Of a stretch of 33,175 bases of DNA, positions 21,452-33,175 are shown piece by piece. The DNA is taken from the NCBI GenBank assembly GCA_964447725.1, contig CAYUUB010000002.1, positions 1 to 33,175 on the forward strand, written 5' to 3'. Numbering within the stretch: the first letter of the stretch is position 1; the number at the start of each line of letters is the position of its first letter. The translations under genes were made by a program, and so were the position numbers. Origin of the DNA: an uncultured Oscillospiraceae bacterium (GTDB lineage: Bacteria > Bacillota > Clostridia > Christensenellales > CAG-138). Below the pieces are notes generated by a model. It searched no databases and was not told where the DNA came from. It saw nothing but the letters and a program-made list of their open reading frames with translations.

Positions 21452-22237
21452 CTATGCTTCTTTGGGGAATCCCAGTCGTTCGGAAATTGACCGGGCGGCG
21501 TCTTTCACCAGCTCGGCATTTTTTGATACGCTCTCCCTGTCCTTCATCCGCGAAGACGGCGTGGAGATACTGATTGCCGCGACCGTTATCCCATAGTGGT
21601 TGTGAATCGCCGCCGCCACGCAGCGCACGCCGAGTTCGTGTTCCTCAATGTCGAGCGCATAACCGCGCTTCCTGATCCTGTTTGTTTCGCGCTTCATCTG
21701 TTCCAGGGATACGATCGTGTTGTTCGTATAGCGCACAACCTTCAGATCAGGCCAGCGGTCCATCAGCTCCTCGTCCGTCCATGCGGACATCAGGACCTTC
21801 CCCGCGCCGGTACAGTACAGCGGTCCGCGCATCCCTGTTCGCGAGCCCATGCGTACGATGTTGACGCCGGGGTCTTCCTTATGCAGATACAGCAGCCCGT
21901 TGCCGTCCTGAATCGCAAGATGGACGACCTCCAGCGTCTGCGCGGAGAGCGTTTCCATCGCAGGCTTCGCCGCCGCAAGGAGGCTGTTTTCCACAATGGC
22001 GCCGCTCCCGATTTCAAACATCCGCATCGTCAGCCGGTAGCGCCCGCTTTCATGGTCCTTGCAGACATACCCGCGCGCAGACAACGATGCCAGCAGCCTG
22101 TGCACGGTGCTGACATGGAGTTTCACTGCCGGAGCGATTTCGCTGAGCAGCATGCCGCGCGGAGATTTGGACAACGTTTCAATGATGTCCAGAACCCGGT
22201 CGATCACCTGTACCGGCCCTTGTGAAGCTTGACTCAT
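21452..22237 (-). CDS. IclR-family transcriptional regulator (KdgR-like by context)
   Basis: N-terminal winged HTH VIDRVLDIIETLSKSPRGMLLSEIAPAVKLHVSTVHRLLASLSARGYV and an IclR effector domain (GVRCVAAAIHNHYGITVAAISISTP). ORF track starts at 22282. I prefer the ATG at 22237 (MSQASQGP...), because the longer form would run through the palindromic operator candidate. The gene is divergent from eda-kdgK. Confidence 0.9.
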   Translation of the reverse strand: MSQASQGPVQVIDRVLDIIETLSKSPRGMLLSEIAPAVKLHVSTVHRLLASLSARGYVCKDHESGRYRLTMRMFEIGSGAIVENSLLAAAKPAMETLSAQTLEVVHLAIQDGNGLLYLHKEDPGVNIVRMGSRTGMRGPLYCTGAGKVLMSAWTDEELMDRWPDLKVVRYTNNTIVSLEQMKRETNRIRKRGYALDIEEHELGVRCVAAAIHNHYGITVAAISISTPSSRMKDRESVSKNAELVKDAARSISERLGFPKEA

Positions 22238-22427: not shown

Positions 22428-23078
22428 ATGCGTGAAAACACAATTGAACAAATATTGAAGGAAAAGGTGATCGCCATTGTCCGCGGCGTCGGCCCGGCGC
22501 AATGCCTGCGCGTTGCAGAAGCGCTCTATCAGGGCGGCATACGGCTTGCCGAGATAACGTTTAATCTGAACGATCCCGGTTCGTTCAGGGAAACGGCGGG
22601 CGCAATCTCCGCAATCGGCAGGGCCTATGCGGGAAAAATGCTTTGCGGCGCAGGCACGGTTACATCCGAAGAGCTTGTCGACCTTGCGGCGGACGCGGGC
22701 GCGGCGTACATCATTTCGCCGGATTCCAATCCCGCCGTCATCCGGCGCACGCTGGAGCGCAAAATTGTTTCGATCCCGGGTGCGATGACGCCGACGGAGG
22801 TTCTGGCCGCGCACGGCGCCGGGGCGGATTTCGTGAAGCTGTTTCCCGCCGCCGCGCTCGGAACCGGCTACATCAAGGCGATCCGGGCCCCCATCAACCA
22901 CGTCCGCCTGCTTGCGGTCGGCGGTGTAAACGAAAAAAACATCGGCGCATTTCTGGCCGCCGGGCTGTACGGCGCGGGCGTGGGCGGGAACCTTGCCAAC
23001 AAAGCGTGGATTCAGGCGGGCGAATATGAGCGCATCACCGCGGCGGCAAAAGAACTCGTCGCGGCAGCGAACGTTTAA
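22428..23078 (+). CDS. eda: 2-dehydro-3-deoxyphosphogluconate (KDPG) / 4-hydroxy-2-oxoglutarate aldolase
   Basis: 216 aa with IAIVRG, EITFN, GAGTV, PGAMTPTE and the Schiff-base lysine context GADFVKLFPA. AAGGAGG lies 8 nt upstream. Confidence 0.92.
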   Translation: MRENTIEQILKEKVIAIVRGVGPAQCLRVAEALYQGGIRLAEITFNLNDPGSFRETAGAISAIGRAYAGKMLCGAGTVTSEELVDLAADAGAAYIISPDSNPAVIRRTLERKIVSIPGAMTPTEVLAAHGAGADFVKLFPAAALGTGYIKAIRAPINHVRLLAVGGVNEKNIGAFLAAGLYGAGVGGNLANKAWIQAGEYERITAAAKELVAAANV

Positions 23079-23091
23079 GGAGGACACGAAA

Positions 23092-24117
23092 ATGGCGAAA
23101 CGAATCGTTACATTCGGCGAAATCATGATGCGTCTCAACCCGTTTGGATATGAACGCTTTGTTCAGGCGGACCGTTTCGAAGTCAGCTTTGCAGGAGGCG
23201 AAGCGAACGTTGCCGTTTCTCTTGCGAATTTCGGTATGGACGCGGCGTTTGTGAGCAAGCTGCCCGGCCATGAAATTGGCCGGAGCGCCGTCAACGCGCT
23301 GCGCCGTTACGGCGTGGACACGTCGGGCATCGTCCGCGGCGGCGATCGTCTCGGCGTGTATTATGTGGAAAAGGGCGCTTCCCAGCGCCCGTCCAAGGTC
23401 ATTTACGACCGCGCCGGTTCCGCAATCGCTCTCGCAAAAACGACCGATTTTGACTGGAACACGATTTTTGACGGTGCGAGCTGGTTTCACTGGACCGGCA
23501 TCACGCCCGCGCTCGGCGGCGAACTGCCGGATATCTGCCTTGCCGCATGCAAGGCGGCCAAAGAACACGGCGTAACGATCTCCTGCGACCTGAACTACCG
23601 CAAGAAGCTTTGGTCTGCCGAAGCCGCCGGAAGATGCATGGCCACCCTTATGCCGTACGTCGACGTCTGCATTGCAAACGAAGCGGACGCAAAAGACGTC
23701 TTCGGCATCGAGGCTGAAAACACCGACGTCGAGAGCGGTGCCTTGAATCACAAAGGATATATCAGCGTGGCGCGCCAGCTTTCCGGGCGGTTCGGCTGCA
23801 AAAAAATCGCCGTCACGCTCCGCGGAAGCCTGTCCGCGACGGACAACGACTGGGCCGGCATGCTTTACAGCGGGGACGGCGCCGTCTTCTCTCCGACGTA
23901 CCGCGTGCATATCGTGGACCGTGTCGGCGGCGGCGACAGCTTCGCCGCGGCGCTGATCTACAGCCAGCTGACCGGAATGGACGACCAGGACGCAATCAAC
24001 TTCGCCGTTGCGGCAAGCTGCCTAAAACACAGCATCGAACACGATTTCAATCTGGTTTCCGTCGACGAAGTCCGGTCGCTTGCGGCGGGCAATGCGTCCG
24101 GCCGGGTCCAGCGCTGA
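23092..24117 (+). CDS. kdgK: 2-dehydro-3-deoxygluconokinase (PfkB family)
   Basis: ORF track starts at 22993. The ATG at 23092 (MAKRIVTFGEIMMRLNP...) has AAGGAGG upstream. PfkB motifs are FAGGEANVAVSLA and the C-terminal VGGGDSFAAALIY. Confidence 0.92.
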   Translation: MAKRIVTFGEIMMRLNPFGYERFVQADRFEVSFAGGEANVAVSLANFGMDAAFVSKLPGHEIGRSAVNALRRYGVDTSGIVRGGDRLGVYYVEKGASQRPSKVIYDRAGSAIALAKTTDFDWNTIFDGASWFHWTGITPALGGELPDICLAACKAAKEHGVTISCDLNYRKKLWSAEAAGRCMATLMPYVDVCIANEADAKDVFGIEAENTDVESGALNHKGYISVARQLSGRFGCKKIAVTLRGSLSATDNDWAGMLYSGDGAVFSPTYRVHIVDRVGGGDSFAAALIYSQLTGMDDQDAINFAVAASCLKHSIEHDFNLVSVDEVRSLAAGNASGRVQR

Positions 24118-24172
24118 CCGCTTTTGCGCATGGCGCATTTTTATATATTTTATATTTTTTATCGGAAAAGCC

Positions 24173-24201
24173 TTGCATCCAAACCGAATTCGTGGTATCT
24201 T
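24173..24201 (+). promoter_or_regulatory. Candidate promoter of the aro operon leader
   Basis: TTGCAT (24173-24178), a 17-nt spacer, then TATCTT (24196-24201), with TG two positions upstream of the -10 (extended -10). It is preceded by a T/A-rich UP-like tract at 24138-24162. Confidence 0.45.
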
Positions 24202-24228
24202 GACTAAAACAAATTGAGGAAGAAGCGC

Positions 24229-24324
24229 ATGATCCAAGAAAACCGCGCAGCCGAATACCGTTACTTTAGCTTTATCAGCTTTTATTTTGGCAAGGCTGAC
24301 TTGGGTTTGGCTGAAAACGGGTGA
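24229..24324 (+). CDS. Candidate 31-codon Phe/Tyr-rich leader peptide
   Basis: Hand translation gives MIQENRAAEYRYFSFISFYFGKADLGLAENG*. GAGGA lies 8 nt upstream. Codons 10-20 contain 3 Tyr and 4 Phe. Too short for the ORF track. Confidence 0.5.
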   Translation: MIQENRAAEYRYFSFISFYFGKADLGLAENG

Positions 24325-24358
24325 TCATGCTTCTCCGGCATACAAAATTCGCATGAGT

Positions 24359-24389
24359 ACCGCGGCCAAACCGGCCGCGGTTTTTATTT
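24359..24389 (+). terminator. Intrinsic terminator (attenuator) immediately upstream of aroF
   Basis: A 9-bp stem ACCGCGGCC-AAACC-GGCCGCGGT is followed by TTTTTATTT. It ends directly before the aroF RBS GGAGGA (24390-24395). Confidence 0.75.
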
Positions 24390-24405
24390 GGAGGAATAAA
24401 AAGCA

Positions 24406-25425
24406 ATGATCGTTATTTTAAAGCCCAATCCCGACAAAGGGCAACTGGAAAGCCTGATCTCCTGGCTGCAGGGCAAAGGCATTCAGATTCACACAAGCCT
24501 CGGCACGTCCCGTATGATTCTCGGGCTGGTCGGCGACACCTCGATGCTGGACATCGACCTGATCTCCGCGCTCGATATCGTCGACGATGTAAAGCGCATT
24601 CAGGAACCGTACAAAAACGCAAATCGGAAATTCCACCCGGACGATACGGTGATTTCGGTCGGCGGCACGCAAATCGGCGGCGGGAACCTGACGCTTATGG
24701 CGGGACCCTGTTCTGTCGAGACGGAGGACCAGATCGTCGAAGTTGCAAAAGCCGTTAAAGAAAGCGGCGCGACCATGCTGCGCGGCGGCGCCTTCAAACC
24801 GCGAACCTCGCCGTATTCATTCCAGGGGCTCGGCGCAGAGGGACTCCGCCTGCTGGAGCTGGCAAAGCAGGAAACCGGGCTGCCCGTCGTCAGCGAAATC
24901 ATGGACGCTTCCCAGCTTCCGTTGTTCGAAAATGTGGACGTGATCCAGGTCGGCGCGCGCAACATGCAAAATTTCAACCTGCTCAAGGTGCTGGGCGCAC
25001 AGGACAAGCCGGTTATGATCAAGCGCGGGCTGGCCTCCACATACGAGGAATGGCTCATGAGCGCCGAATACGTCATGGCCTCCGGCAACGAAAACGTAAT
25101 TCTGTGCGAACGCGGCGTGCGCACCTTTGAAACCTATACGCGCAACACGCTGGACATCGCCGCGGTCCCGGTCTTGCGGCACTTAACGCACCTGCCGATC
25201 ATCGTCGACCCCAGTCATGCCACCGGCCGGTCCGCGCTGGTCGCGCCGCTCGCCGCGGGCGCGGTCGCCGCCGGATGCGACGGCCTGCTCATCGAGGTCC
25301 ACAACGACCCCGCCCACGCGTTGAGCGACGGTCCGCAGTCTCTGAATCCGGAAGCGTTCGACCGGCTTGCGAGGAAGCTCGTCGCCCTGCACGGTTTCAT
25401 GCGCGACCTGGTGGCCGCACAATGA
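24406..25425 (+). CDS. aroF: 3-deoxy-7-phosphoheptulonate (DAHP) synthase, type I-beta with N-terminal ferredoxin-like regulatory domain
   Basis: 339 aa. An N-terminal roughly 65-aa domain MIVILKPNPDKGQLESLISWLQGKGIQIHTSLGTSRMILGLVGD precedes the catalytic barrel (LMAGPCSVE, GGAFKPRTSPYSFQG, IVDPSHATG). This is the architecture known from Thermotoga-type DAHP synthases. Confidence 0.95.
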   Translation: MIVILKPNPDKGQLESLISWLQGKGIQIHTSLGTSRMILGLVGDTSMLDIDLISALDIVDDVKRIQEPYKNANRKFHPDDTVISVGGTQIGGGNLTLMAGPCSVETEDQIVEVAKAVKESGATMLRGGAFKPRTSPYSFQGLGAEGLRLLELAKQETGLPVVSEIMDASQLPLFENVDVIQVGARNMQNFNLLKVLGAQDKPVMIKRGLASTYEEWLMSAEYVMASGNENVILCERGVRTFETYTRNTLDIAAVPVLRHLTHLPIIVDPSHATGRSALVAPLAAGAVAAGCDGLLIEVHNDPAHALSDGPQSLNPEAFDRLARKLVALHGFMRDLVAAQ

Positions 25426-26258
25426 ACGTAGGCATCGTCGGCCTGGGACTGATCGGCGGTTCCATGGCAAAAAGCATCAAAAACCGCACGGCGCACATCG
25501 TCTGGGGCGCGGACCTCAACGCGGAAACCATGACGCTCGCGCGGCTCAGCGGTGCGATCGACGCGCCGCTGAGCGATGAAAACCTTCGCGCGTGCGACCT
25601 GCTTCTTCTCGCCATCCGCCCGAATGCGGCGCTGGAATGGGTCCGCGCCAACGCGGACAAAATCGAAGCACGCACGATCGTCGTCGACCTCTGCGGCGTC
25701 AAGCGTGTCGTTTGCAGCGCGATCGCCCCGATCGCAAAAATGCACGGATTCGCTTATATCGGCGGCCATCCGATGGCCGGACGCGAGCGCAGCGGTTTCG
25801 TCAGTTCCGGTATCGATCTGTTTTCCGGCGCTTCCATGATCCTTACGCCGAACGAGCGCACGGACATGCAAACGCTCGAAACGCTGAAATCTTTCTTCAC
25901 GGATATCGGCTTTGCGGGCCTGACGTTCTCCAACCCGGACGAGCACGACCGCATCATCGCCTACACGTCCCAACTGGCGCACATCGTATCCAGCGCGTAC
26001 ATCAAGTCGCCCGAAGCCCAGCTTCGGCGCGGTTTTTCCGCCGGAAGCTACCGGGACATGACGCGCGTTGCGCATCTGGACGAGGACATGTGGACGGAAC
26101 TGTTTCTGGACAATGCGGACTATCTGTCCGAACAGCTCGATATCCTGATCGGCCATCTGAACGAATACCGCGCCGCTCTCGGCGCGCAAGACGCGGAGCG
26201 TCTCCGCGCGCTGCTTCGGGACGGCCGCGAAAAGAAAGCTACGGCGGGAGGCAACTAA
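25422..26258 (+). CDS. tyrA: Prephenate dehydrogenase
   Basis: ORF track starts at 25275. The ATG at 25422 overlaps the aroF stop (ATGA) and gives MNVGIVGLGLIGGSMAKSI (Rossmann GxGxxG). GGHPMAGRE motif is present. Confidence 0.9.
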   Translation: MNVGIVGLGLIGGSMAKSIKNRTAHIVWGADLNAETMTLARLSGAIDAPLSDENLRACDLLLLAIRPNAALEWVRANADKIEARTIVVDLCGVKRVVCSAIAPIAKMHGFAYIGGHPMAGRERSGFVSSGIDLFSGASMILTPNERTDMQTLETLKSFFTDIGFAGLTFSNPDEHDRIIAYTSQLAHIVSSAYIKSPEAQLRRGFSAGSYRDMTRVAHLDEDMWTELFLDNADYLSEQLDILIGHLNEYRAALGAQDAERLRALLRDGREKKATAGGN

Positions 26259-26261
26259 GCG

Positions 26262-27332
26262 ATGAGTATCCACCGAATTCCCGTCCGCGTTAAAAACGAA
26301 TACGAAGTCGCGATCGGCCGAGGCCTGCTTGAAAAAAGCGGCGCATTGCTGATCGAGGTCGTCGGCAGCTGCCGAATTGCGATCGTCACGGATTCCAATG
26401 TTGAAAAGCTCTATCTGCAAACGGTGGAAAACAGTCTGGATCAGGCCGGATACGACGTCTGCTCGTTCGTTTTTCCCGCCGGGGAAAGCGCCAAACGGAT
26501 GCATACCCTTTCCGATATTCTTGAGTTTTTAGCAAAAAACCGTCTTTCGCGCGGCGACTGCGTCGTTGCGCTCGGCGGCGGCGTAACCGGCGATCTGTCC
26601 GGCTTTGCGGCGGGCTGTTATCTGCGCGGCATCCGTTATGTTCAGTTGCCGACCACGCTGCTTGCCGCGGTGGATTCGTCCGTCGGCGGGAAAACAGCCG
26701 TAGATCTGTCCGCAGGGAAAAACCTTGCGGGTCTTTTTTATCAGCCTTCGCTGGTTGTCTGCGACCCGGACTGCTTTTCCACCCTGCCGGACGGCGAATT
26801 CGCAAACGGCGCCGCGGAAGCGATCAAAACCGGGGTTCTGGACGGCGAGCCGCTGTTCCGGTTGTTCGAAACCGGCAACGTCCGCGAAAACATCGACGAA
26901 ATCGTCGCGCGGTGCGTCGCGTTTAAAGCAGGCGTCGTCGAGGCGGACGAATTCGACAGCTCGCTGCGCAACACCCTCAACCTCGGGCACACTGCGGGCC
27001 ACGCAATCGAAGCCTGCAGCGGTTATACGATTCCGCACGGACAGGCTGTTGCGATCGGTTTGTCCATCATTGCAAAAGCCGCCGAAGCGCTCCGCGAAGC
27101 GACGGAACCGATTTCGGAACGCATCCGGCACACGCTCGTTCAAAGCGGCCTGCCCGTTACGTCGCCGTACTCGCCGGAGATGCTCGCAAGCGCCGCGCTT
27201 TCCGACAAAAAACGCGCGGGCGGCTCCATACGGATCGTGCTTCCGCGCCGCATCGGCGACTGCGCGCTGAAAACCATCCCGGTCGGCGAGCTGTTATCCG
27301 TCTTTCGCGCGGGGATGGAGGGCGACGCATGA
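26262..27332 (+). CDS. aroB: 3-dehydroquinate synthase
   Basis: 356 aa with GGGVTGDLSGFAA, QLPTTLLAAVDSSVGGKTAV and NLGHTAGHAIE. Confidence 0.95.
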   Translation: MSIHRIPVRVKNEYEVAIGRGLLEKSGALLIEVVGSCRIAIVTDSNVEKLYLQTVENSLDQAGYDVCSFVFPAGESAKRMHTLSDILEFLAKNRLSRGDCVVALGGGVTGDLSGFAAGCYLRGIRYVQLPTTLLAAVDSSVGGKTAVDLSAGKNLAGLFYQPSLVVCDPDCFSTLPDGEFANGAAEAIKTGVLDGEPLFRLFETGNVRENIDEIVARCVAFKAGVVEADEFDSSLRNTLNLGHTAGHAIEACSGYTIPHGQAVAIGLSIIAKAAEALREATEPISERIRHTLVQSGLPVTSPYSPEMLASAALSDKKRAGGSIRIVLPRRIGDCALKTIPVGELLSVFRAGMEGDA

Positions 27333-28585
27333 ACGCCATCATTGCGCCCGCGCCGCTTTCCGGCGAAATCGAAGCGATCTCCTCAAAATCCGACGCGCAC
27401 CGGCTGCTGATACTGGCCGCGCTTTCGAAGGGAACAACCACGCTCATCCGGCTCAATCAGCGTTCGGACGATATCGACGCGACGATCGGCTGCCTGCGCG
27501 CCATGGGCGCGCAGATCGATGCCGCTCCGGACGGAATCGTGGTCCACGGAATCCGCACGTTTGCCGACAATCCGCTGCTGGACTGCAACGAAAGCGGGTC
27601 CACGTTCCGTTTTCTGCTGCCGGTTGCGGCGGCGTGCTGCGATTCGGCGCGCTTTGCCGGGCACGGACGGCTGCCCGAGCGGCCGGTACGCGAGTTGCTG
27701 CAGACCATGCGGTCGCACGGCGTCCGCTTTTCGGCCGACCGCCTTCCGTTTTCAATCACCGGTCGTCTGGGCGGCGGCGATTACGAACTTCCGGGCGACG
27801 TCAGTTCCCAGTATCTGACCGGCTTGCTACTCGCGCTGCCGACGGTCGATCGGAACAGCGTCGTCACGCTCACGACAAAGCTGGCGTCCGCGGCCTATGT
27901 CGACATTACGCTTTCCGCGCTCAGCCGGTTCGGTATCCGCGCCTCGGCTGAAGACGGCGTCTACTCAGTCCCCGGGGGGCAACTTTGCGTTTCGCCCGGA
28001 GAAATCCGTGCGGACGGCGACTGGTCGAACGCGGCGTTCTTCCTCGCCGCGGGCGCGCTGGGACGACCCGTTCGCGTAAGCGGCTTGCGCATGGATTCGC
28101 CGCAGGGCGATAAAAATATTTTGGATATTCTCCGCTCGTTCGGGGCGAACGTGTCGGTTTCCGGCGACGCGGCGACGGTTGCGCCGGCAACGCTCCACGG
28201 AATCGATCTCGACGTTGGGGAAACGCCCGACCTGCTGCCAGTTCTGGCTGTTCTGGCGGCCTGCGCGGGCGGCGAAACGCGGCTCGTCAACGCGGCCCGG
28301 CTCCGCCTGAAGGAAAGCGACCGGCTGACCGCCACGGCAAAGCTGATCAACGGCCTCGGCGGAGATGCAAAAGAATTGCCGGACGGTCTGGTCGTTCGCG
28401 GCGGAATCCTGTCCGGCGGGACGGTGGACAGTTTTCACGACCACCGCATCGCCATGGCGGCGGCGGTCGCGGCGGTCCGCTGCAAAAACCCGGTCACGAT
28501 TCTCGACGCGGGCGCGGCGGCAAAGTCCTACCCTGCGTTCTATGAAGATTATCAAAAGCTTGGAGGAAACGTGGATGTCGTCTGA
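27329..28585 (+). CDS. aroA: 3-phosphoshikimate 1-carboxyvinyltransferase (EPSP synthase)
   Basis: 418 aa with SKSDAHRLLILAAL, CNESGSTFRFLLPVAA and DHRIAMAAAVAA. ATGA overlap with the aroB stop. Confidence 0.95.
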   Translation: MNAIIAPAPLSGEIEAISSKSDAHRLLILAALSKGTTTLIRLNQRSDDIDATIGCLRAMGAQIDAAPDGIVVHGIRTFADNPLLDCNESGSTFRFLLPVAAACCDSARFAGHGRLPERPVRELLQTMRSHGVRFSADRLPFSITGRLGGGDYELPGDVSSQYLTGLLLALPTVDRNSVVTLTTKLASAAYVDITLSALSRFGIRASAEDGVYSVPGGQLCVSPGEIRADGDWSNAAFFLAAGALGRPVRVSGLRMDSPQGDKNILDILRSFGANVSVSGDAATVAPATLHGIDLDVGETPDLLPVLAVLAACAGGETRLVNAARLRLKESDRLTATAKLINGLGGDAKELPDGLVVRGGILSGGTVDSFHDHRIAMAAAVAAVRCKNPVTILDAGAAAKSYPAFYEDYQKLGGNVDVV

Positions 28586-29669
28586 ATTTGGAAAGGTCCT
28601 TCGCGTCGGCGTCTTCGGGCAGTCGCACGGCCGCGCCATCGGCGTGACCATGGATGGCCTGCCCGCCGGAGAAGCAATCGACATGGACGAATTGCGCGCC
28701 TTTTTGGAGCGCCGCCGTCCGGGCAGGTCTTCGCTCTCGACCGCGAGACGGGAAGCGGACGAGCCTGTGTTTCTGTCCGGCCTGGTCGACGGCAAAACCA
28801 GCGGCAGCCCGCTTTGCGCAATCATCGAAAACAAGGATGTTCGCTCCAAAGACTATTCGGAGTTCGCCGACAAGCCGCGCCCCGGGCACGCGGACTATAC
28901 GGCCTGTGTCAAGTGGAACGGCAAAGCCGATATGCGCGGCGGCGGACACTTCTCCGGGCGGCTGACCGCGCCGCTTTGCATCGCGGGCGGAATCGCAAAA
29001 CAGATTCTGGCGCGAAAAGATATCTTCGTCGGCGCGCATCTTGCAGAAATCGCGGGCATTGCGGACGAAGCCTTCCCGCTGATGCCGACGCAGACGTTAT
29101 TTGCGGAAATCGCGGCGAAACCGTTTCCCGTCATCGACGACGCGCAGGGCGAAAGCATGCGCTCGGCGATTTTGTCCGCGGCCGCCGACGGCGATTCCGT
29201 CGGCGGTGTGATCGAATGCGCGGCAATCGGCGTTCCCGCCGGTTTGGGCGGACCGATGTTCGACGGCATGGAAAACCGCCTGAGCGCGGCGCTGTTCGGC
29301 ATCCCCGCCGTCAAAGGCGTGGAATTCGGCGCGGGCTTTCAGGCGGCGACGATGCGCGGATCAAAAAATAACGACCCGTTCATAATGGCGGGCGACGGAT
29401 CGATCGTTACCAAAACGAACCACGCCGGCGGCATCCTCGGCGGAATTACGACCGGCATGCCGATCGTAATGCGTCTGGGCGTCAAACCCACGCCGTCGAT
29501 TGCAAAGACGCAAAACACGGTCAGCCTGTCCGCCCGTGAAAACACTACTCTGGCAATCAATGGTCGCCACGACCCATGTATTGCGCACCGGGCCGTTCCC
29601 GTCGCGGAGGCCGTGTGCGCCATCGTCCTGCTGGACAGTTTATTGGAGGAGAAAAGCAGATGGAATTGA
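28575..29669 (+). CDS. aroC: Chorismate synthase
   Basis: ORF track starts at 28365. The ATG at 28575 (MSSEFGKVLRVGVFGQSHGRAIGVTMDGLPAG) has GGAGGA upstream. RPGHADY and GRHDPC motifs are present. Confidence 0.95.
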   Translation: MSSEFGKVLRVGVFGQSHGRAIGVTMDGLPAGEAIDMDELRAFLERRRPGRSSLSTARREADEPVFLSGLVDGKTSGSPLCAIIENKDVRSKDYSEFADKPRPGHADYTACVKWNGKADMRGGGHFSGRLTAPLCIAGGIAKQILARKDIFVGAHLAEIAGIADEAFPLMPTQTLFAEIAAKPFPVIDDAQGESMRSAILSAAADGDSVGGVIECAAIGVPAGLGGPMFDGMENRLSAALFGIPAVKGVEFGAGFQAATMRGSKNNDPFIMAGDGSIVTKTNHAGGILGGITTGMPIVMRLGVKPTPSIAKTQNTVSLSARENTTLAINGRHDPCIAHRAVPVAEAVCAIVLLDSLLEEKSRWN

Positions 29670-30799
29670 ACGAAATACGGAACTCGATCGACTCGGTGGA
29701 TGAACGGCTGCTCAAGCTGTTTTTGGAACGCATGGATTTGAGTGAACAGGTGGCCGCCTACAAACAGGCGCATTCTTTGCCGCTGCTCAACAAAACGCGC
29801 GAACGCGAAATTCTTGCGCGCGTCTCAGAGCAAGCCGGCGAACGAGAACCCTATGCCTATCAACTCTTCACCACGCTGTTTGAGCTTTCCAAAGCGCGCC
29901 AGCGCGAGCTCTATGCGCAGCCTTCCACGGTACGCGCGCAGGTGGAGCGTGCGCTCGCCGCACCGGAGGACGTTTTTCCGCGGACGGGCGTCGTCGCCTG
30001 TCAGGGCGTGGAAGGATCGAACTCGCAGGCGGCCTGCGACAAGCTGCTGCCACGCGGAAACATCGTATACGTCAAAAGTTTCGAGGCCGTGTTCGACGCG
30101 GTGGAATCCGGGCTCTGCCGCTTCGGCGTGCTTCCGATTGAAAACAGCGCGAACGGTTCCGTCCGTATCGTCTACGACCTGCTCCAGAGAAAACATTTTT
30201 CCATCGTCCGCAGCACGAGCCTCTGCATCCGGCACGAACTGATGGCAAAGCCGGGAACGAAGCTCTCCGACGTCACGGACATCTTTTCGCACGAACAGGC
30301 CATCGGCCAGTGCAGCCGGTACCTCGGCAAGCTCAACGGCAAGGTGAAGGTGACGCCCTGCGCAAATACGGCGCTCGCTGCGAAGACGGTTTCCGAAAGC
30401 GGCGGCCCCGGCGCGGCGGCGATCTGCTCGCACGCCTGCGCCGCGCTGTACGGCCTGGACGTGCTCAGCGACGATATTCAGGACAGCGACAACAACTACA
30501 CCCGCTTTATCTGCATTGCAAAGGACCCCGTGATCTATGCCGGTTCCAACCGTATCAGCCTGATTCTGGCCTGCCAGAACAAGCCGGGCGCGCTCAACGA
30601 AATACTGACCAAGCTCTCCGTACACGGCGTGAACATGAGCAAGCTGGAAAGCTGTCCCGTGACCGGCCGCAACTTCGAGTTTATCTTTTTCTTTGAGCTG
30701 GACGCTTCCGTGCGCGAGCCCGGCGTTCTGCCCATGCTGGAGGAGCTGGAACGCATCAGCGAAAGCTTCACCTTCCTCGGCAACTACTCGATGGTCTGA
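29660..30799 (+). CDS. pheA: Bifunctional chorismate mutase / prephenate dehydratase (P-protein)
   Basis: ORF track starts at 29576. The ATG at 29660 (MELNEIRNSIDSVDERLLKLFLERMDLSEQVAAYK, the CM domain) has GGAGGAG upstream. The PDT domain carries GVEGSNSQAA and NYTRF, and the C-terminal ACT domain carries KPGALNEILT...LESCP. Confidence 0.93.
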   Translation: MELNEIRNSIDSVDERLLKLFLERMDLSEQVAAYKQAHSLPLLNKTREREILARVSEQAGEREPYAYQLFTTLFELSKARQRELYAQPSTVRAQVERALAAPEDVFPRTGVVACQGVEGSNSQAACDKLLPRGNIVYVKSFEAVFDAVESGLCRFGVLPIENSANGSVRIVYDLLQRKHFSIVRSTSLCIRHELMAKPGTKLSDVTDIFSHEQAIGQCSRYLGKLNGKVKVTPCANTALAAKTVSESGGPGAAAICSHACAALYGLDVLSDDIQDSDNNYTRFICIAKDPVIYAGSNRISLILACQNKPGALNEILTKLSVHGVNMSKLESCPVTGRNFEFIFFFELDASVREPGVLPMLEELERISESFTFLGNYSMV

Positions 30800-32047
30800 A
30801 TGATGGAAGGCCGCATCTACGGACTCATAGGGCGCAGCCTGAAGCATAGTTATTCCGTCCCGATCCATAGGGAACTGGGAGCGAAAGGTTACCGGCTGAT
30901 CGAGCTGGAGCCGGAGGAGCTTGCAGCGTTTCTCCAAAGGGACGATATCGGCGGCCTGAACGTCACGATCCCTTACAAACGCGACGTGATGGCATGCTGC
31001 TCTTCGCTCGATGAAACGGCGCGCGCCATCGGCAGCGTCAACACGATCGTCCGGCAGGAAGACGACACGCTGAAGGGCTATAATACGGACGCATATGGCT
31101 TTTCCTATATGGCGAGGCGCGCCGGCGTTTCGTTTGCCGGGCGCAAGGTCGTGATCTTCGGCAGCGGCGGCGCGTCTCTGACCGCGCAGTATGTCGCAAG
31201 GCAAAGCGGCGCGTCCGCGGTCGTCGTGATCTCCCGCAGCGGGCCGGATAACTATGAAAATCTCGCCCGCCACGCGGACGCGGAGGTCCTCGTCAACGCA
31301 ACGCCCGTCGGCATGTATCCAAACACCGGCGTGATGCCCGCCGGCCCGGCTTTGTTCCCGAACTGCAAAGGCGTGCTGGATTTGATTTACAATCCGCGCA
31401 GGACGGCGCTTTTACTCCGGGCCGACGCGCTCGGCATCCCCTGTTCGGATGGCCTTCCAATGCTGGTTTCGCAAGCAAAAGCAGCGGAAGAACTGTTTTT
31501 TGGCCAAAAAATACCGAACTCCGAAAACGAGCGCCTCCTGAAAAAGCTTTACCGGGACATGCAGAATATCGTACTGGTCGGCATGCCGGGCAGCGGGAAA
31601 ACCACGATTGGCAATGCGCTCAGCCGGATCGCCGGACGGAGAGCCGTCGATCTCGACGCCGAAATCGAAAAAACTGCCGGATGCACGATTCCCGCCATCT
31701 TTGCGTCCTCCGGCGAGGAAGCCTTTCGCCGGATGGAGCGTGAACAGGCGAAAAAATGGGGCAAGGAAAGCGGCAATATCCTGATCACCGGCGGCGGCAT
31801 CGTCAAGGACCCGCGCAACTACGCTTCGTTGAAGCAGAACGGGCGCATCTATCAGATCGAGCGGGACGTGCGTTCGCTCGAGCGCGCCGGACGTCCGCTC
31901 TCCGAAAACGCCGACCTTTCCGAGATGTACTGCCGGCGGCAGCCGCTTTACGAACGTTTCCGCGACGCAGCGGCGCAAAACGACGGCTCGGCGGAAACAG
32001 CCGCGCAAGCCATATGGGAGGATTACTGTGAACATTCTGATCATTAA
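30800..32047 (+). CDS. aroE/aroK: Fused shikimate dehydrogenase (N-terminal) / shikimate kinase (C-terminal)
   Basis: 415 aa. The N-terminal half has YGLIGRSLKHSYSVPIH, NVTIPYK and GSGGAS (AroE). The C-terminal half has the Walker A NIVLVGMPGSGKTTIG and the EEAFRRMERE motif (AroK). Confidence 0.9.
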   Translation: MMEGRIYGLIGRSLKHSYSVPIHRELGAKGYRLIELEPEELAAFLQRDDIGGLNVTIPYKRDVMACCSSLDETARAIGSVNTIVRQEDDTLKGYNTDAYGFSYMARRAGVSFAGRKVVIFGSGGASLTAQYVARQSGASAVVVISRSGPDNYENLARHADAEVLVNATPVGMYPNTGVMPAGPALFPNCKGVLDLIYNPRRTALLLRADALGIPCSDGLPMLVSQAKAAEELFFGQKIPNSENERLLKKLYRDMQNIVLVGMPGSGKTTIGNALSRIAGRRAVDLDAEIEKTAGCTIPAIFASSGEEAFRRMEREQAKKWGKESGNILITGGGIVKDPRNYASLKQNGRIYQIERDVRSLERAGRPLSENADLSEMYCRRQPLYERFRDAAAQNDGSAETAAQAIWEDYCEHSDH

Positions 32048-32462
32048 CGGGCCGAACCTGAACCTGCTCGGCCTGCGCGAGCCGGATATCTACGGCAAAC
32101 AAACCTATGCCGACCTGGTTGAGATGATTCGTCTTGAGGCTGTGTCCCTCGGCGTCTCGGTTACCTTCGTGCAGTCCAACCACGAGGGCAATCTCGTGGA
32201 CGCGATCCAGAGCGCGTATCAAACGGCGGACGGAATCGTCATCAATCCCGGCGCTTACACGCACACGAGCATTGCGCTGCTCGACGCGCTCAAGGCCGTC
32301 GGCGTCCCCGCCGTGGAAGTGCACATCTCCGATCCCGATCAGCGCGAGGAATTCCGGCACGTCTCGTATATTCGCAGTGCGTGCATCGCGACCGTCAAAG
32401 GGCACGGCCTGAACGGTTATCTTGAAGCGCTGCGGCTCCTTTGCGAAAAGCAGGATGAATAA
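32028..32462 (+). CDS. aroQ: Type II 3-dehydroquinate dehydratase
   Basis: 144 aa with ILIINGPNLNLLGLREPDIYG, NHEG and HISDPDQREEFRHVS. GTG start with GGGAGGA 5 nt upstream. It overlaps the aroE/aroK end by 20 nt. Confidence 0.95.
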   Translation: MNILIINGPNLNLLGLREPDIYGKQTYADLVEMIRLEAVSLGVSVTFVQSNHEGNLVDAIQSAYQTADGIVINPGAYTHTSIALLDALKAVGVPAVEVHISDPDQREEFRHVSYIRSACIATVKGHGLNGYLEALRLLCEKQDE

Positions 32463-32480: not shown

Positions 32481-32518
32481 ACAAAGCGGCTCCGCAGGGA
32501 TTTGCGGAGCCGCTTTGT
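32481..32518. terminator. Bidirectional terminator between aroQ and convergent ilvC
   Basis: A perfect 16-bp stem ACAAAGCGGCTCCGCA-GGGATT-TGCGGAGCCGCTTTGT is followed by GTTTTGTTG. Confidence 0.85.
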
Positions 32519-32570
32519 GTTTTGTTGTCCGTCGAACGAGCGCTTCCGGATTGTTCGCCGCTGTAAACGG

Positions 32571-33175
<605 letters not shown>

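Follow-up and report, generated by a model that had tools for sequence, protein, structure and literature searches.

Leader-peptide attenuators are a well-known class of bacterial regulators that includes pheL-pheA, pheM-pheST and the trpL, hisL, leuL and thrL leaders, with Phe_leader as an Rfam family. Classical attenuation of this kind is regarded as a proteobacterial speciality, and the amino acid operons of Firmicutes are usually described under the control of T-boxes, TRAP or repressors. TRAP-regulated leaders carry nine to eleven (G/U)AG triplets with a spacing of 2-3 nt. Among the described systems closest to the locus studied here, the aroR leader of Corynebacterium glutamicum contains Phe and Tyr codons and precedes the aroF operon, and stalling raises read-through (Neshat et al. 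2014, as cited in PMC11802643). In the account given in PMC11802643, aroR has only a Phe-Tyr-Phe triplet and responds to Phe, not to Tyr. Another candidate is the uORFC-13-1 motif, described only from Acholeplasma and environmental sequences with 24 representatives, all of them exclusively before aroF; it consists of a candidate uORF with a ribosome binding site and start codon immediately upstream of an intrinsic terminator, and has been proposed to act via the speed of Phe incorporation (PMC8632094). In addition, candidate His attenuators have been reported in the Bacillus cereus group, in Peptostreptococcaceae/Lutispora and in Erysipelotrichales (PMC9413887).

The locus described here is the Phe/Tyr biosynthesis operon of a metagenome-assembled genome (MAG) from an uncultured Clostridia bacterium (Christensenellales). 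The window, meaning the whole stretch of DNA that was analysed, spans 33,175 nt, and the features described below lie on its forward strand. According to NCBIfam and Pfam matches, the putatively regulated operon (24390-32462) comprises aroF, tyrA, aroB, aroA, aroC, pheA (CM-PDT), an aroE-aroK fusion and aroQ, in this order, the genes abutting or overlapping one another, and its annotation contains no trp genes. Upstream, kdgK ends at 24117 and aroF, the DAHP synthase gene, starts at 24406, leaving a gap of 288 nt. The kdgK unit is closed by its own intrinsic terminator (24125-24142, TGCGCATGGCGCA followed by TTTTT), which isolates the leader from the upstream operon, so that the leader needs its own promoter. 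A likely sigma-A promoter is located at 24173-24201, with the -35 element TTGCAT (24173-24178), a spacer of 17 nt and the extended -10 element TGg-TATCTT (24193-24201). The promoter was missed by the consensus scan because its -35 element has only 3 of 6 matches, though the layout TTGC..N17..TGnTAnnnT is kept in the alignment of relatives. Transcription would start a few bases past the extended -10 element.

The leader ORF (24229-24324) has 31 codons, encodes MIQENRAAEYRYFSFISFYFGKADLGLAENG and ends in TGA at 24322-24324, and its Shine-Dalgarno (SD) sequence GAGGA (24216-24220) is located 8 nt before the ATG at 24229. Seven of the 11 codons in the run from codon 10 to codon 20 (24256-24288) encode Tyr or Phe (TAC, TAC, TTT, TTT, TTT, TAT and TTT at codons 10, 12, 13, 15, 18, 19 and 20, respectively), and none of the 31 codons encodes Trp. 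At least seven Phe/Tyr per 11 codons were found in 7 of the 14,379 ATG-started ORFs of 12-60 codons in the genome (0.05%). The codon bias fits the end products of the operon, which contains pheA and tyrA and no trp genes. A missing Trp pathway was considered as the reason for the lack of a Trp codon and rejected, trpB being present in 5/5 of the more complete relatives checked (it was not found in the studied MAG, which is 73% complete). The T-rich neighbouring sequence also yields a spurious aromatic-rich ORF (24130-24207) with 6/11 Phe/Tyr codons. A search for other leader peptides in the genome gave nothing beyond a WW mini-ORF on contig C14, which sits within a long ORF and was discarded as spurious.

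The intrinsic terminator (regions 3:4, 24359-24389) has the form ACCGCGGCC-AAACC-GGCCGCGGT, followed by the T-tract TTTTTATTT. Its hairpin (24359-24381) has 9 bp, 8 of them G-C, and a 5-nt loop (-19.0 kcal/mol), and the T-tract runs to 24389, directly before the aroF SD GGAGG (24390-24394). Thus far the analysis agrees in full with the original prediction, which had placed in a 288-nt gap between kdgK and the DAHP synthase gene a plausible extended -10 promoter, a 31-codon ORF rich in Tyr and Phe and free of Trp with GAGGA 8 nt upstream, and a 9-bp GC hairpin with a T-tract adjoining the aroF ribosome binding site, and had matched the codon bias to the end products.

The mutually exclusive antiterminator, which had escaped the original prediction, was found by folding and complementarity. 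Region 1 (CAGCCGAATACCG, codons 7-11, 24248-24260), defined by minimum free energy (MFE) folds and pair counts, can pair with region 2 (TGGGTTTGGCTG, codons 25-29, 24302-24313), a switch strand whose alternative partners are region 1 and region 3. A ribosome held up on the earliest aromatic codons would cover region 1. The segment GGTTTGGCTG within region 2 (codons 26-29, 24304-24313) is complementary to the 5' arm and loop of the terminator (24363-24372) and pairs alternatively with codons 7-11 (24248-24260), and together these pairings give the classic 1:2 / 2:3 / 3:4 design. The top of the 1:2 structure is formed by an inner hairpin, P2 (24266-24299), recognised from folds and compensatory changes, which carries the aromatic codons in its 5' arm and loop and is a candidate RNA polymerase pause hairpin. 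A second switch strand (GATCATGC, 24323-24330) overlaps the stop codon at 24322-24324, and its partners are the start-codon region (24227-24234) in the off state or 24351-24356 in the on state. Region 3, the 3' strand of the antiterminator (24351-24372), consists of GCATGA (24351-24356), CCG (24360-24362) and CGGCCAAACC (24363-24372), and takes in 8 of the 9 nt of the terminator 5' arm and the entire loop. The antiterminator comprises three helices (24304-24313 with 24363-24372, 24318-24320 with 24360-24362, and 24325-24330 with 24351-24356) and has a folding energy of -25.6 kcal/mol. A different competitor had been suggested originally, namely AACCGCG in codons 5-7 pairing with the 3' arm of the terminator. 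This part of the prediction did not hold, as the CCGCG/CCGCA core is present in only 6/20 relatives and the site itself would be covered by a stalled ribosome, the actual switch strand being GGGTTTGGCTG at 24303-24313. A putative anti-SD sequence, CUUCUCC (24330-24336), can pair with the aroF SD in the MFE structure; this pairing is not conserved in relatives and was set aside.

The leader folds better than 200/200 shuffles (z = -3.3). When the region covered by a stalled ribosome was masked and the transcript was cut before region 4, the antiterminator was the MFE structure in 20/20 species of the genus, with energies from -22.4 to -30.9 kcal/mol. Folding with the ribosome at defined positions showed, for the studied leader, that the antiterminator forms when the A-site codon is Tyr10 or Phe15 and does not form with the ribosome at the stop codon or without a ribosome. 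For a ribosome placed at Phe20, pairing of regions 1 and 2 around it is permitted in the model, and stalls late in the codon run may be ineffective. The full-length leader favours the terminator in all ribosome states modelled, so that the switch would have to be kinetic.

The leader very probably acts as a ribosome-mediated transcription attenuator sensing charged tRNA-Phe and tRNA-Tyr, as its sequence and modelled folds suggest. The leader transcript would be approximately 180 nt long and carry the 31-codon ORF. When Phe and Tyr are ample, the lead ribosome would reach the UGA (24322-24324) and cover region 2 (24302-24313) and the stop-region strand (24323-24330); with both masked, region 3 would be free for region 4, the 9-bp terminator (24359-24381) would form, and RNA polymerase would stop in the T-tract before aroF. 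The operon would also be off if no ribosome is loaded, because the ORF folds on itself, the start pairing with the stop region and region 1 with region 2, together with P2. Conversely, a shortage of Phe-tRNA or Tyr-tRNA would stall the ribosome in codons 10-20, where it would occlude region 1 and P2, and region 2 and the stop-region strand would pair with region 3 once it is transcribed. The resulting three-helix antiterminator (-25.6 kcal/mol) would tie up 8/9 nt of the terminator 5' arm and the loop, allowing the polymerase to read through into aroF-tyrA-aroB-aroA-aroC-pheA-aroE/K-aroQ. The pheL/trpL-type layout proposed originally is thus strongly supported in silico, its sequence-level hallmarks being all present and conserved, with a predicted response to Phe/Tyr supply.

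Within the genus, 20 of the 24 species sampled carry the leader DNA, in each case immediately before aroF. Alignment of these orthologous leaders showed that the small ORF and its aromatic run are kept at 20/20 loci; SD and ATG hold the same in-frame spacing, and the stretch from the ATG to the core is free of indels. All 20 leaders have a purine-rich GGA/GAAG block at the place of the SD. A scan of 185,579 species genomes for the codon-level pattern returned 36 matches, and 36/36 sit approximately 150 nt before aroF; all are MAGs, most of them labelled Christensenellaceae or Christensenella and the rest broader Clostridia/Bacillota. The peptide core reads AEYRYF-x-F-x-x-[FY][FY][FY]-GK...GLA, and codons 18-20 exchange Phe and Tyr among relatives yet remain aromatic. 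Codons 2-7 are free to vary in sequence and fixed in length. Third codon positions are also conserved: codons 13 and 15 are TTT, and codon 22 is AAG, throughout.

The alternative pairings are conserved in the same set of relatives. Overall, 97.4% of alignment cells are paired, versus 27-50% with slid partners. The helices of region 1 with region 2 (helices 1-2) are paired in 90-100% of cells, and 3 of the 10 P2 pairs show compensatory changes (G-C/A-U/U-A, A-U/G-C and A-U/G-C), some of which alter the peptide (Ser/Tyr/Ile14 with Ala/Val/Asp23). The terminator arms are 100% paired in 20/20 relatives, with one compensatory pair (A-U to G-C), the change being found in the studied window, and the loop sequence is kept. 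The segment GGTTTGGC, the reverse complement of the terminator sequence GCCAAACC, is invariant in 20/20. The antiterminator helix is consequently invariant within the genus, where it shows no covariation and its support consists of conservation only. The role of the second switch strand is filled in relatives by other sequences, for instance GTGATCG with CGATCGC.

Similar leaders were found beyond the genus. In samples of the order and the class, which were drawn by aroF homology and are therefore unbiased toward the leader, a Phe/Tyr-rich ORF followed by a terminator, with other sequences, precedes aroF in 20 of the 29 genomes sampled from the rest of the order, and at 44 of 68 loci from other Clostridia orders (20/28 and 24/40). 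At least seven Phe/Tyr codons in 12 were present in 19/29 upstream regions of the order, versus 1/29 on the reverse strand and 0/1,450 shuffles. A divergent leader (L035) has the identical three pairings, and at least 12 other families of the order have leaders with this three-pairing design. Region 2 pairs with its own terminator better than with foreign ones (mean -11.0 vs. -8.1 kcal/mol; 0/10,000 permutations as good), although this cross-family support comes from related lineages and the permutation P-value overstates their independence. Single-leader shuffle controls were weak in 5 of 23 leaders (z from -0.1 to -0.8), these controls being mononucleotide shuffles of the spacer, a weaker test than dinucleotide shuffling. 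Across the class, the leaders have little in common save an SD-preceded run of Phe/Tyr codons before a terminator; ATG-started leaders vary from 19 to 37 codons, and length and sequence outside the run are unconserved, with an [FY]-x-G-K motif recurring in several other families. The predicted leader family is widespread in Clostridia and uncatalogued. Of the aroF loci sampled in Clostridia, approximately two thirds have a Phe/Tyr leader. The studied leader probably belongs to an uncatalogued family of dual Phe and Tyr attenuators that spans the class and would be the predominant control of aroF and the shikimate pathway in Clostridia, rather than T-box or TRAP.

The conservation of the leader at the nucleotide level, unusual in that it includes third codon positions, could also be expected of a translation-independent RNA switch, such as a riboswitch or a tRNA- or protein-bound site, that toggles terminator and antiterminator with the ORF as a by-product. 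The strong structure (z = -3.3) and the compensatory changes that override the peptide sequence would suit such a switch, yet it would leave unexplained why SD and ATG stay in frame at a fixed distance with codons 2-7 constrained in length and not in sequence, and why aromatic identity survives exchanges between Phe and Tyr. A ligand-binding fold would, moreover, behave otherwise than the leaders of the order and class, which share little but the Phe/Tyr run. Database searches argue in the same direction. An Rfam cmscan of 23900-24700 at E ≤ 10 gave 9 weak matches, none of them to a leader-peptide family; the best, isrF, scored 22.6 bits against a cut-off of 40 bits and aligned mainly on the terminator, and the enterobacterial pheL model (Phe_leader) gave no match in this interval at the same threshold. 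The T-box model (RF00230) had no match in the leader at E ≤ 10, and 13 related loci likewise had none at gathering score, whereas the model gave 11 matches elsewhere in the genome, 4 of them above the Rfam cut-off, as a positive control. The leader contains 4 GAG/TAG triplets, none in series, so TRAP-type (G/U)AG repeats are absent. No T-box or other covariance model thus explains the leader, and a translation-independent switch is considered very improbable.

Alternatively, the product of the mini-ORF could itself be what counts, either as a functional small peptide or, as with TnaC and SecM, as a nascent-chain arrest peptide; the residues would then matter and not the demand for tRNA. Conservation in the genus does extend past the aromatic residues (A-E-Y-R-Y-F, G-K and G-L-A), but the non-aromatic codons that are conserved fall in regions 1 and 2 and in the arms of P2, so that RNA pairing explains them, and paired positions change the residue to save the pair (Ser/Tyr/Ile with Ala/Val/Asp). 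The recurrence of [FY]-x-G-K in several other families would favour a role for the peptide; against it, length (19-37 codons) and the sequence other than Phe/Tyr vary across the class, the leader peptide matches no Pfam or NCBIfam family, and there would be no sense in a biosynthetic operon being induced by free Phe or Tyr. A peptide acting through its residues therefore seems highly unlikely. Least credible of all, with hardly any probability left to it, is that the ORF arose by chance in a T-rich spacer and that there is no switch, the hairpin being a terminator or stabiliser of the ordinary kind. The kdgK unit is already ended by its own terminator (from 24125), and a strong terminator lies downstream of the promoter and 9 nt before the aroF SD (24381 to 24390), a position from which only a conditional terminator would let the operon be expressed. 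The neighbouring spurious ORF (24130-24207, 6/11 Phe/Tyr) shows that such sequence can produce aromatic-rich frames, and single-sequence shuffle tests of the antiterminator were sometimes non-significant; nevertheless, the conservation of ORF, frame and pairings is far above controls (19/29 vs. 1/29 and 0/1,450), and the 36/36 pattern matches are all located before aroF. Ribosome-mediated attenuation remains the preferred reading.

In this uncultured Christensenellales bacterium, a complete and conserved leader-peptide attenuator would govern the entire Phe/Tyr pathway. As Rfam, Pfam and NCBIfam offer no model for such leaders, current annotation pipelines miss them, and so do reconstructions of regulons in microbes of the gut and of digesters. 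Ribosome-dependent attenuation requires the first ribosome to keep pace with RNA polymerase. In Bacillus subtilis, transcription and translation are described as uncoupled to a large extent (Johnson et al. 2020, reviewed in PMC7858274), and if a similar uncoupling applied here, this type of attenuation would work poorly. The abundance of the predicted leaders in Clostridia bears on the generality of the "runaway transcription" of B. subtilis: if the class-wide family is real, the lead ribosome and RNA polymerase would be effectively synchronised at these leaders, despite the uncoupling found in B. subtilis in the same phylum. The mechanism itself is textbook, and the gain lies in cataloguing and in one well-dissected example, with no new principle. 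The original prediction had also contrasted the layout with the T-box or TRAP control of Firmicutes; these are indeed the usual description, but the novelty is reduced by the leader-peptide attenuators already known in Gram-positive bacteria (PMC9413887, PMC8632094, PMC11802643).

Compared with these systems, the aroR leader is similar in that a Phe/Tyr-codon leader peptide precedes the DAHP synthase (aroF) operon; compared by published description only, the studied leader differs from it in its 7-8 aromatic codons and in its lineage, which is unrelated to the Actinobacteria that harbour aroR (PMC11802643). The uORFC-13-1 motif shares the aroF context, the terminator and U-rich Phe codons, a likeness that rests on its published description, the family not having been returned by the Rfam scan of the studied leader. 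However, its U run codes for at least one Phe and it has no long mixed Tyr/Phe run, and no antiterminator was described for it (PMC8632094). The candidate His attenuators are, like the leaders reported here, comparative-genomics predictions of leader peptides in Firmicutes operons without a T-box or repressor, but they have 3-5 His codons, precede another operon and are restricted to few small lineages (17 genomes) (PMC9413887). The T-box (RF00230) also reports tRNA charging through a choice between terminator and antiterminator in the 5' leader, although it binds uncharged tRNA directly and does not need translation.

The design is also similar to that of E. coli pheL. Both leaders have a short ORF that follows an SD and is enriched in codons of the end product, four RNA regions with alternative 1:2, 2:3 and 3:4 hairpins, an intrinsic terminator right before the first biosynthetic gene, and a stop codon sited so that a terminating ribosome would mask region 2. 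The leader studied here nevertheless does not match the Rfam model of pheL in sequence or structure, and its host belongs to the Clostridia, not to the Proteobacteria. Its mixed Tyr/Phe run would sense two amino acids, and it is predicted to govern the whole shikimate pathway and both branch enzymes, not pheA alone. Finally, its antiterminator makes use of the terminator loop, and a second switch strand is placed at the stop codon.

The 288-nt intergenic gap between the stop codon of the sugar-kinase gene (24117) and the ATG of aroF, encoding DAHP synthase (24406), contains every element that the original prediction had placed there, all on the forward strand. The promoter combines a -35 box TTGCAT (24173-24178) and an extended -10 element TGg-TATCTT (24193-24201) across a 17-nt spacer, and the leader Shine-Dalgarno sequence (SD) GAGGA (24216-24220) precedes the ATG at 24229 by 8 nt. 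The leader ORF (24229-24324) encodes the peptide MIQENRAAEYRYFSFISFYFGKADLGLAENG, with Tyr or Phe at codons 10, 12, 13, 15, 18, 19, and 20 and no Trp codon. This aromatic density is rare among small ORFs of the genome, since at least 7 Phe/Tyr in 11 codons were found in 7 of the 14,379 ATG-initiated ORFs (12-60 codons) counted across the entire 2.5-Mb assembly. The terminator hairpin (24359-24381; 9 bp, eight of them G-C; -19.0 kcal/mol) is followed by the T-tract TTTTTATTT and, directly after it, by the aroF SD GGAGG (24390-24394); the terminator of the upstream sugar-kinase gene is a separate structure (24125-24137). The leader fold was better than 200/200 dinucleotide shuffles (z = -3.3). 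The best reading of the sequence is classical leader-peptide attenuation, in which the charging of both tRNA-Phe and tRNA-Tyr would be sensed. The leader parts, the alternative pairings, and the conservation of both are present and support the ribosome-mediated attenuator proposed originally.

In the unconstrained fold, the ORF folds wholly on itself through a start-stop helix (24227-24234 with 24323-24330), the pairing of region 1 (CAGCCGAATACCG, 24248-24260, codons 7-11) with region 2 (24302-24313, codons 25-29), and an inner hairpin, P2 (24266-24299), whose 5' arm and loop hold the aromatic codons. An alternative 2:3 pairing was also found. The antiterminator candidate initially suggested, AACCGCG in codons 5-7, was discarded, and region 2 was identified instead: its sequence GGTTTGGC, invariant in 20/20 related species, has its exact reverse complement in GCCAAACC, which comprises the final three bases of the terminator 5' arm and the terminator loop. 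Loops are not usually conserved, but this one is in relatives, a feature explained by its pairing with region 2. Three antiterminator helices (24304-24313 with 24363-24372, 24318-24320 with 24360-24362, and 24325-24330 with 24351-24356) total -25.6 kcal/mol and tie up 8 nt of the 9-nt terminator 5' arm.

When a stall was mimicked by masking the 5' part to just past the aromatic run and ending the transcript before region 4, the antiterminator was the minimum-energy fold in all 20 species (-22.4 to -30.9 kcal/mol). Approximate ribosome footprints of 31 nt were also modelled on the window leader. With the A site at Tyr10 or Phe15 the antiterminator forms, while region 3 is left free and the terminator forms if the ribosome has reached the stop codon or is absent. 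With the A site at Phe20, the folding model allows region 1 to pair with region 2 across the ribosome, so stalls late in the aromatic run may count for less. In full-length RNA, the terminator was preferred in each ribosome state modelled, and therefore, as in the trp paradigm, the switch must be decided kinetically. We infer the transcription start, the ribosome footprints, and the order of folding, as well as the physiological response of the leader; the 1:2/P2 hairpin would serve as a pause element. In the unconstrained fold, CUUCUCC (24330-24336) also pairs with GGAGGAA of aroF (24390-24396), which could act as an anti-SD contact once the terminator has formed; relatives do not conserve CUUCUCC.

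By DNA search, the leader was found in 20 of 24 other species sampled from the genus; two of the four genomes without a match are about 72-73% complete, and the others 83% and 92%. It adjoins aroF (82-88% identical) on the upstream side in all 20, and the ORF is kept in each, with the core A-E-Y-R-Y-F-[S/Y/I]-F-[T/A/I]-x-[F/Y]-[F/Y]-[F/Y]-G-K-...-G-L-A. The 20-species alignment has no indels between the ATG or the purine-rich SD and the core, and the sequence of codons 2-7 is free to vary. Codons 18-20 read FYF, YYF, or YFY depending on the species and are aromatic throughout; such Phe/Tyr swaps would be expected of regulatory codons and not of a peptide of fixed sequence. In one clade of the genus (L008, L009, L012, and L015-L019 among the compared loci), an extra short hairpin (e.g., CTCGGC-GACA-GCCGAG), missing from the window, is inserted downstream of the promoter, ahead of the leader SD.

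In the same alignment, 97.4% of cells were paired in the off structure, compared with 27-50% in a control with the 3' partners slid by 1-3 columns. Both-sided changes occurred in four pairs: three belong to P2, and the fourth, in the terminator, is the window's own change from A-U to G-C. The compensatory changes in P2 are also amino-acid changes in the peptide, codon 14 (Ser/Tyr/Ile) varying together with codon 23 (Ala/Val/Asp), and, judging from the alignment, selection in P2 acts on the RNA. No covariation was detected in the antiterminator helix within the genus because it is nearly invariant; inside the genus, the evidence for this predicted helix is its conservation.

A scan with a codon-level pattern across one genome per species (185,579 species) returned 36 matches, all approximately 150 nt before aroF. 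These records are uncultured MAGs, in the majority labelled Christensenellaceae or Christensenella, and otherwise Eubacteriales, Clostridiales, Clostridia, Clostridiaceae, Oscillospiraceae, Bacillota/Firmicutes, or, in one case, 'metagenome'; from these labels, the 'Firmicute-like' host had been guessed correctly. In the most divergent match (L035, aroF 66% identical), region 2 (UGGUGGUUUUCGCGG) and the terminator (GACCUCGCGG-AACACCA-CCGCGAGGUC) are both unlike those of the window, and region 2 pairs with codons that precede the aromatic run and also with the terminator 5' arm and loop.

Wider loci were sampled by aroF protein homology, so that the group was not defined by the leader itself. 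An ORF with at least 7 Phe/Tyr in 12 codons, no more than 250 nt upstream of aroF, was found in 19 of 29 other genomes of the order (reverse strand, 1/29; shuffles, 0/1,450). A Phe/Tyr ORF with an intrinsic terminator before aroF was present in 20/29, from at least 12 families, at a threshold of at least 5 Phe/Tyr in 12 codons, with 19 of the 20 reaching at least 6. A segment at or just past the ORF end pairs with the terminator 5' arm and loop in the order leaders, with an energy below the shuffle mean in 23/23 leaders (these 20 and three genus representatives; z = -0.07 to -6.2). Pairing with the own terminator averaged -11.0 kcal/mol versus -8.1 kcal/mol with foreign ones, and 0/10,000 permutations were as good, figures that overstate independence, the lineages being related. 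In other orders of the class, the ORF and terminator were found in 20 of the best 28 aroF matches and in 24 of 40 further loci, hand-picked among lower-scoring aroF matches, one per genome (reverse-strand control, 3/40 reaching 6 of 12). The distant leaders suggest that region 2 may again be encoded by the last codons. Many of them (L105-L132 and L133-L172, from other Clostridia orders) end in Cys-rich codons (..LCC.., ..CCEK, ..CVA..), and their UGC/UGU triplets look complementary to GCACAG/GCAGC-type terminators.

The operon after the leader comprises aroF, tyrA, aroB, aroA, aroC, pheA (chorismate mutase-prephenate dehydratase), an aroE-aroK fusion, and aroQ, that is, the entire common pathway together with the Phe and Tyr branches; trp genes are absent. 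The fusion joins shikimate dehydrogenase and shikimate kinase in a single 415-aa ORF (30800-32047), whose 3' end is overlapped by aroQ (type II dehydroquinase, 32028-32462), and thus all seven shikimate steps, tyrA, and pheA form one unit behind the attenuator. The trpB gene was not found in the window's MAG (73% complete) and is present in 5/5 more complete genomes of the genus (G002, G016, G019, G020, and G021). These relatives carry trpB, yet no Trp codon occurs in the leader; the Trp demand for chorismate is therefore apparently not sensed there, which would leave the common pathway blind to Trp at that point. Upstream of the leader, KDPG/KHG aldolase (22428-23078) and sugar kinase (22993-24117) are encoded by two separate, overlapping genes; the top NCBIfam model for the kinase, 'KHG/KDPG aldolase/sugar kinase fusion protein', scored 591 bits, under the 700-bit cut-off. 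The ORF at 32502-33173 (at least 224 aa, running past the window end) had no NCBIfam or Pfam match, and that at 21596-22225 (209 aa) no Pfam match.

Regarding known regulators, an Rfam scan of 23900-24700 (E <= 10) gave nine weak matches, all under the gathering score, the top one being isrF (22.6 bits; cut-off, 40 bits), aligned mostly over the terminator; neither a T-box nor a leader family for Phe, Trp, or His was among them. Elsewhere in the same genome, 11 T-box matches (L088-L098) were found, four above the Rfam cut-off, indicating that the organism uses detectable T-boxes, but not at this leader. They lie on contigs C51, C300, C112, C158, and seven others, and T-box and leader-peptide sensing thus occur side by side in one organism. 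A TRAP site was rejected, as the leader has four GAG/TAG triplets, none in series. The leader peptide matched no Pfam or NCBIfam model.

The mechanism is like that of the E. coli pheL/pheM and trpL class, although the corresponding Rfam models do not match the window leader. In Corynebacterium glutamicum, aroR, a Phe-Tyr-Phe leader peptide upstream of the aroF operon, was shown to respond to Phe and not to Tyr (PMC11802643). The uORFC-13-1 motif of the Breaker laboratory, a uORF with Phe codon(s) adjoining a terminator, occurs exclusively before aroF and is limited to Acholeplasma and environmental sequences (PMC8632094). Attenuators with His codons are predicted in a small number of Firmicutes lineages (PMC9413887), and an older comparative paper assigned T-box control to most Firmicutes aminoacyl-tRNA-synthetase genes and classical attenuation to none (PMC1262725). 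Among the papers searched, no description of such a Phe/Tyr aroF leader in Clostridia was found. The leader is an uncatalogued example of an already known type of regulator; the mechanism itself is not new, and the value lies in the annotation of a widespread leader family. Bacillus subtilis is reported as uncoupled for transcription-translation (PMC7858274), and the abundance of this family bears on ribosome-polymerase coupling in the same phylum.
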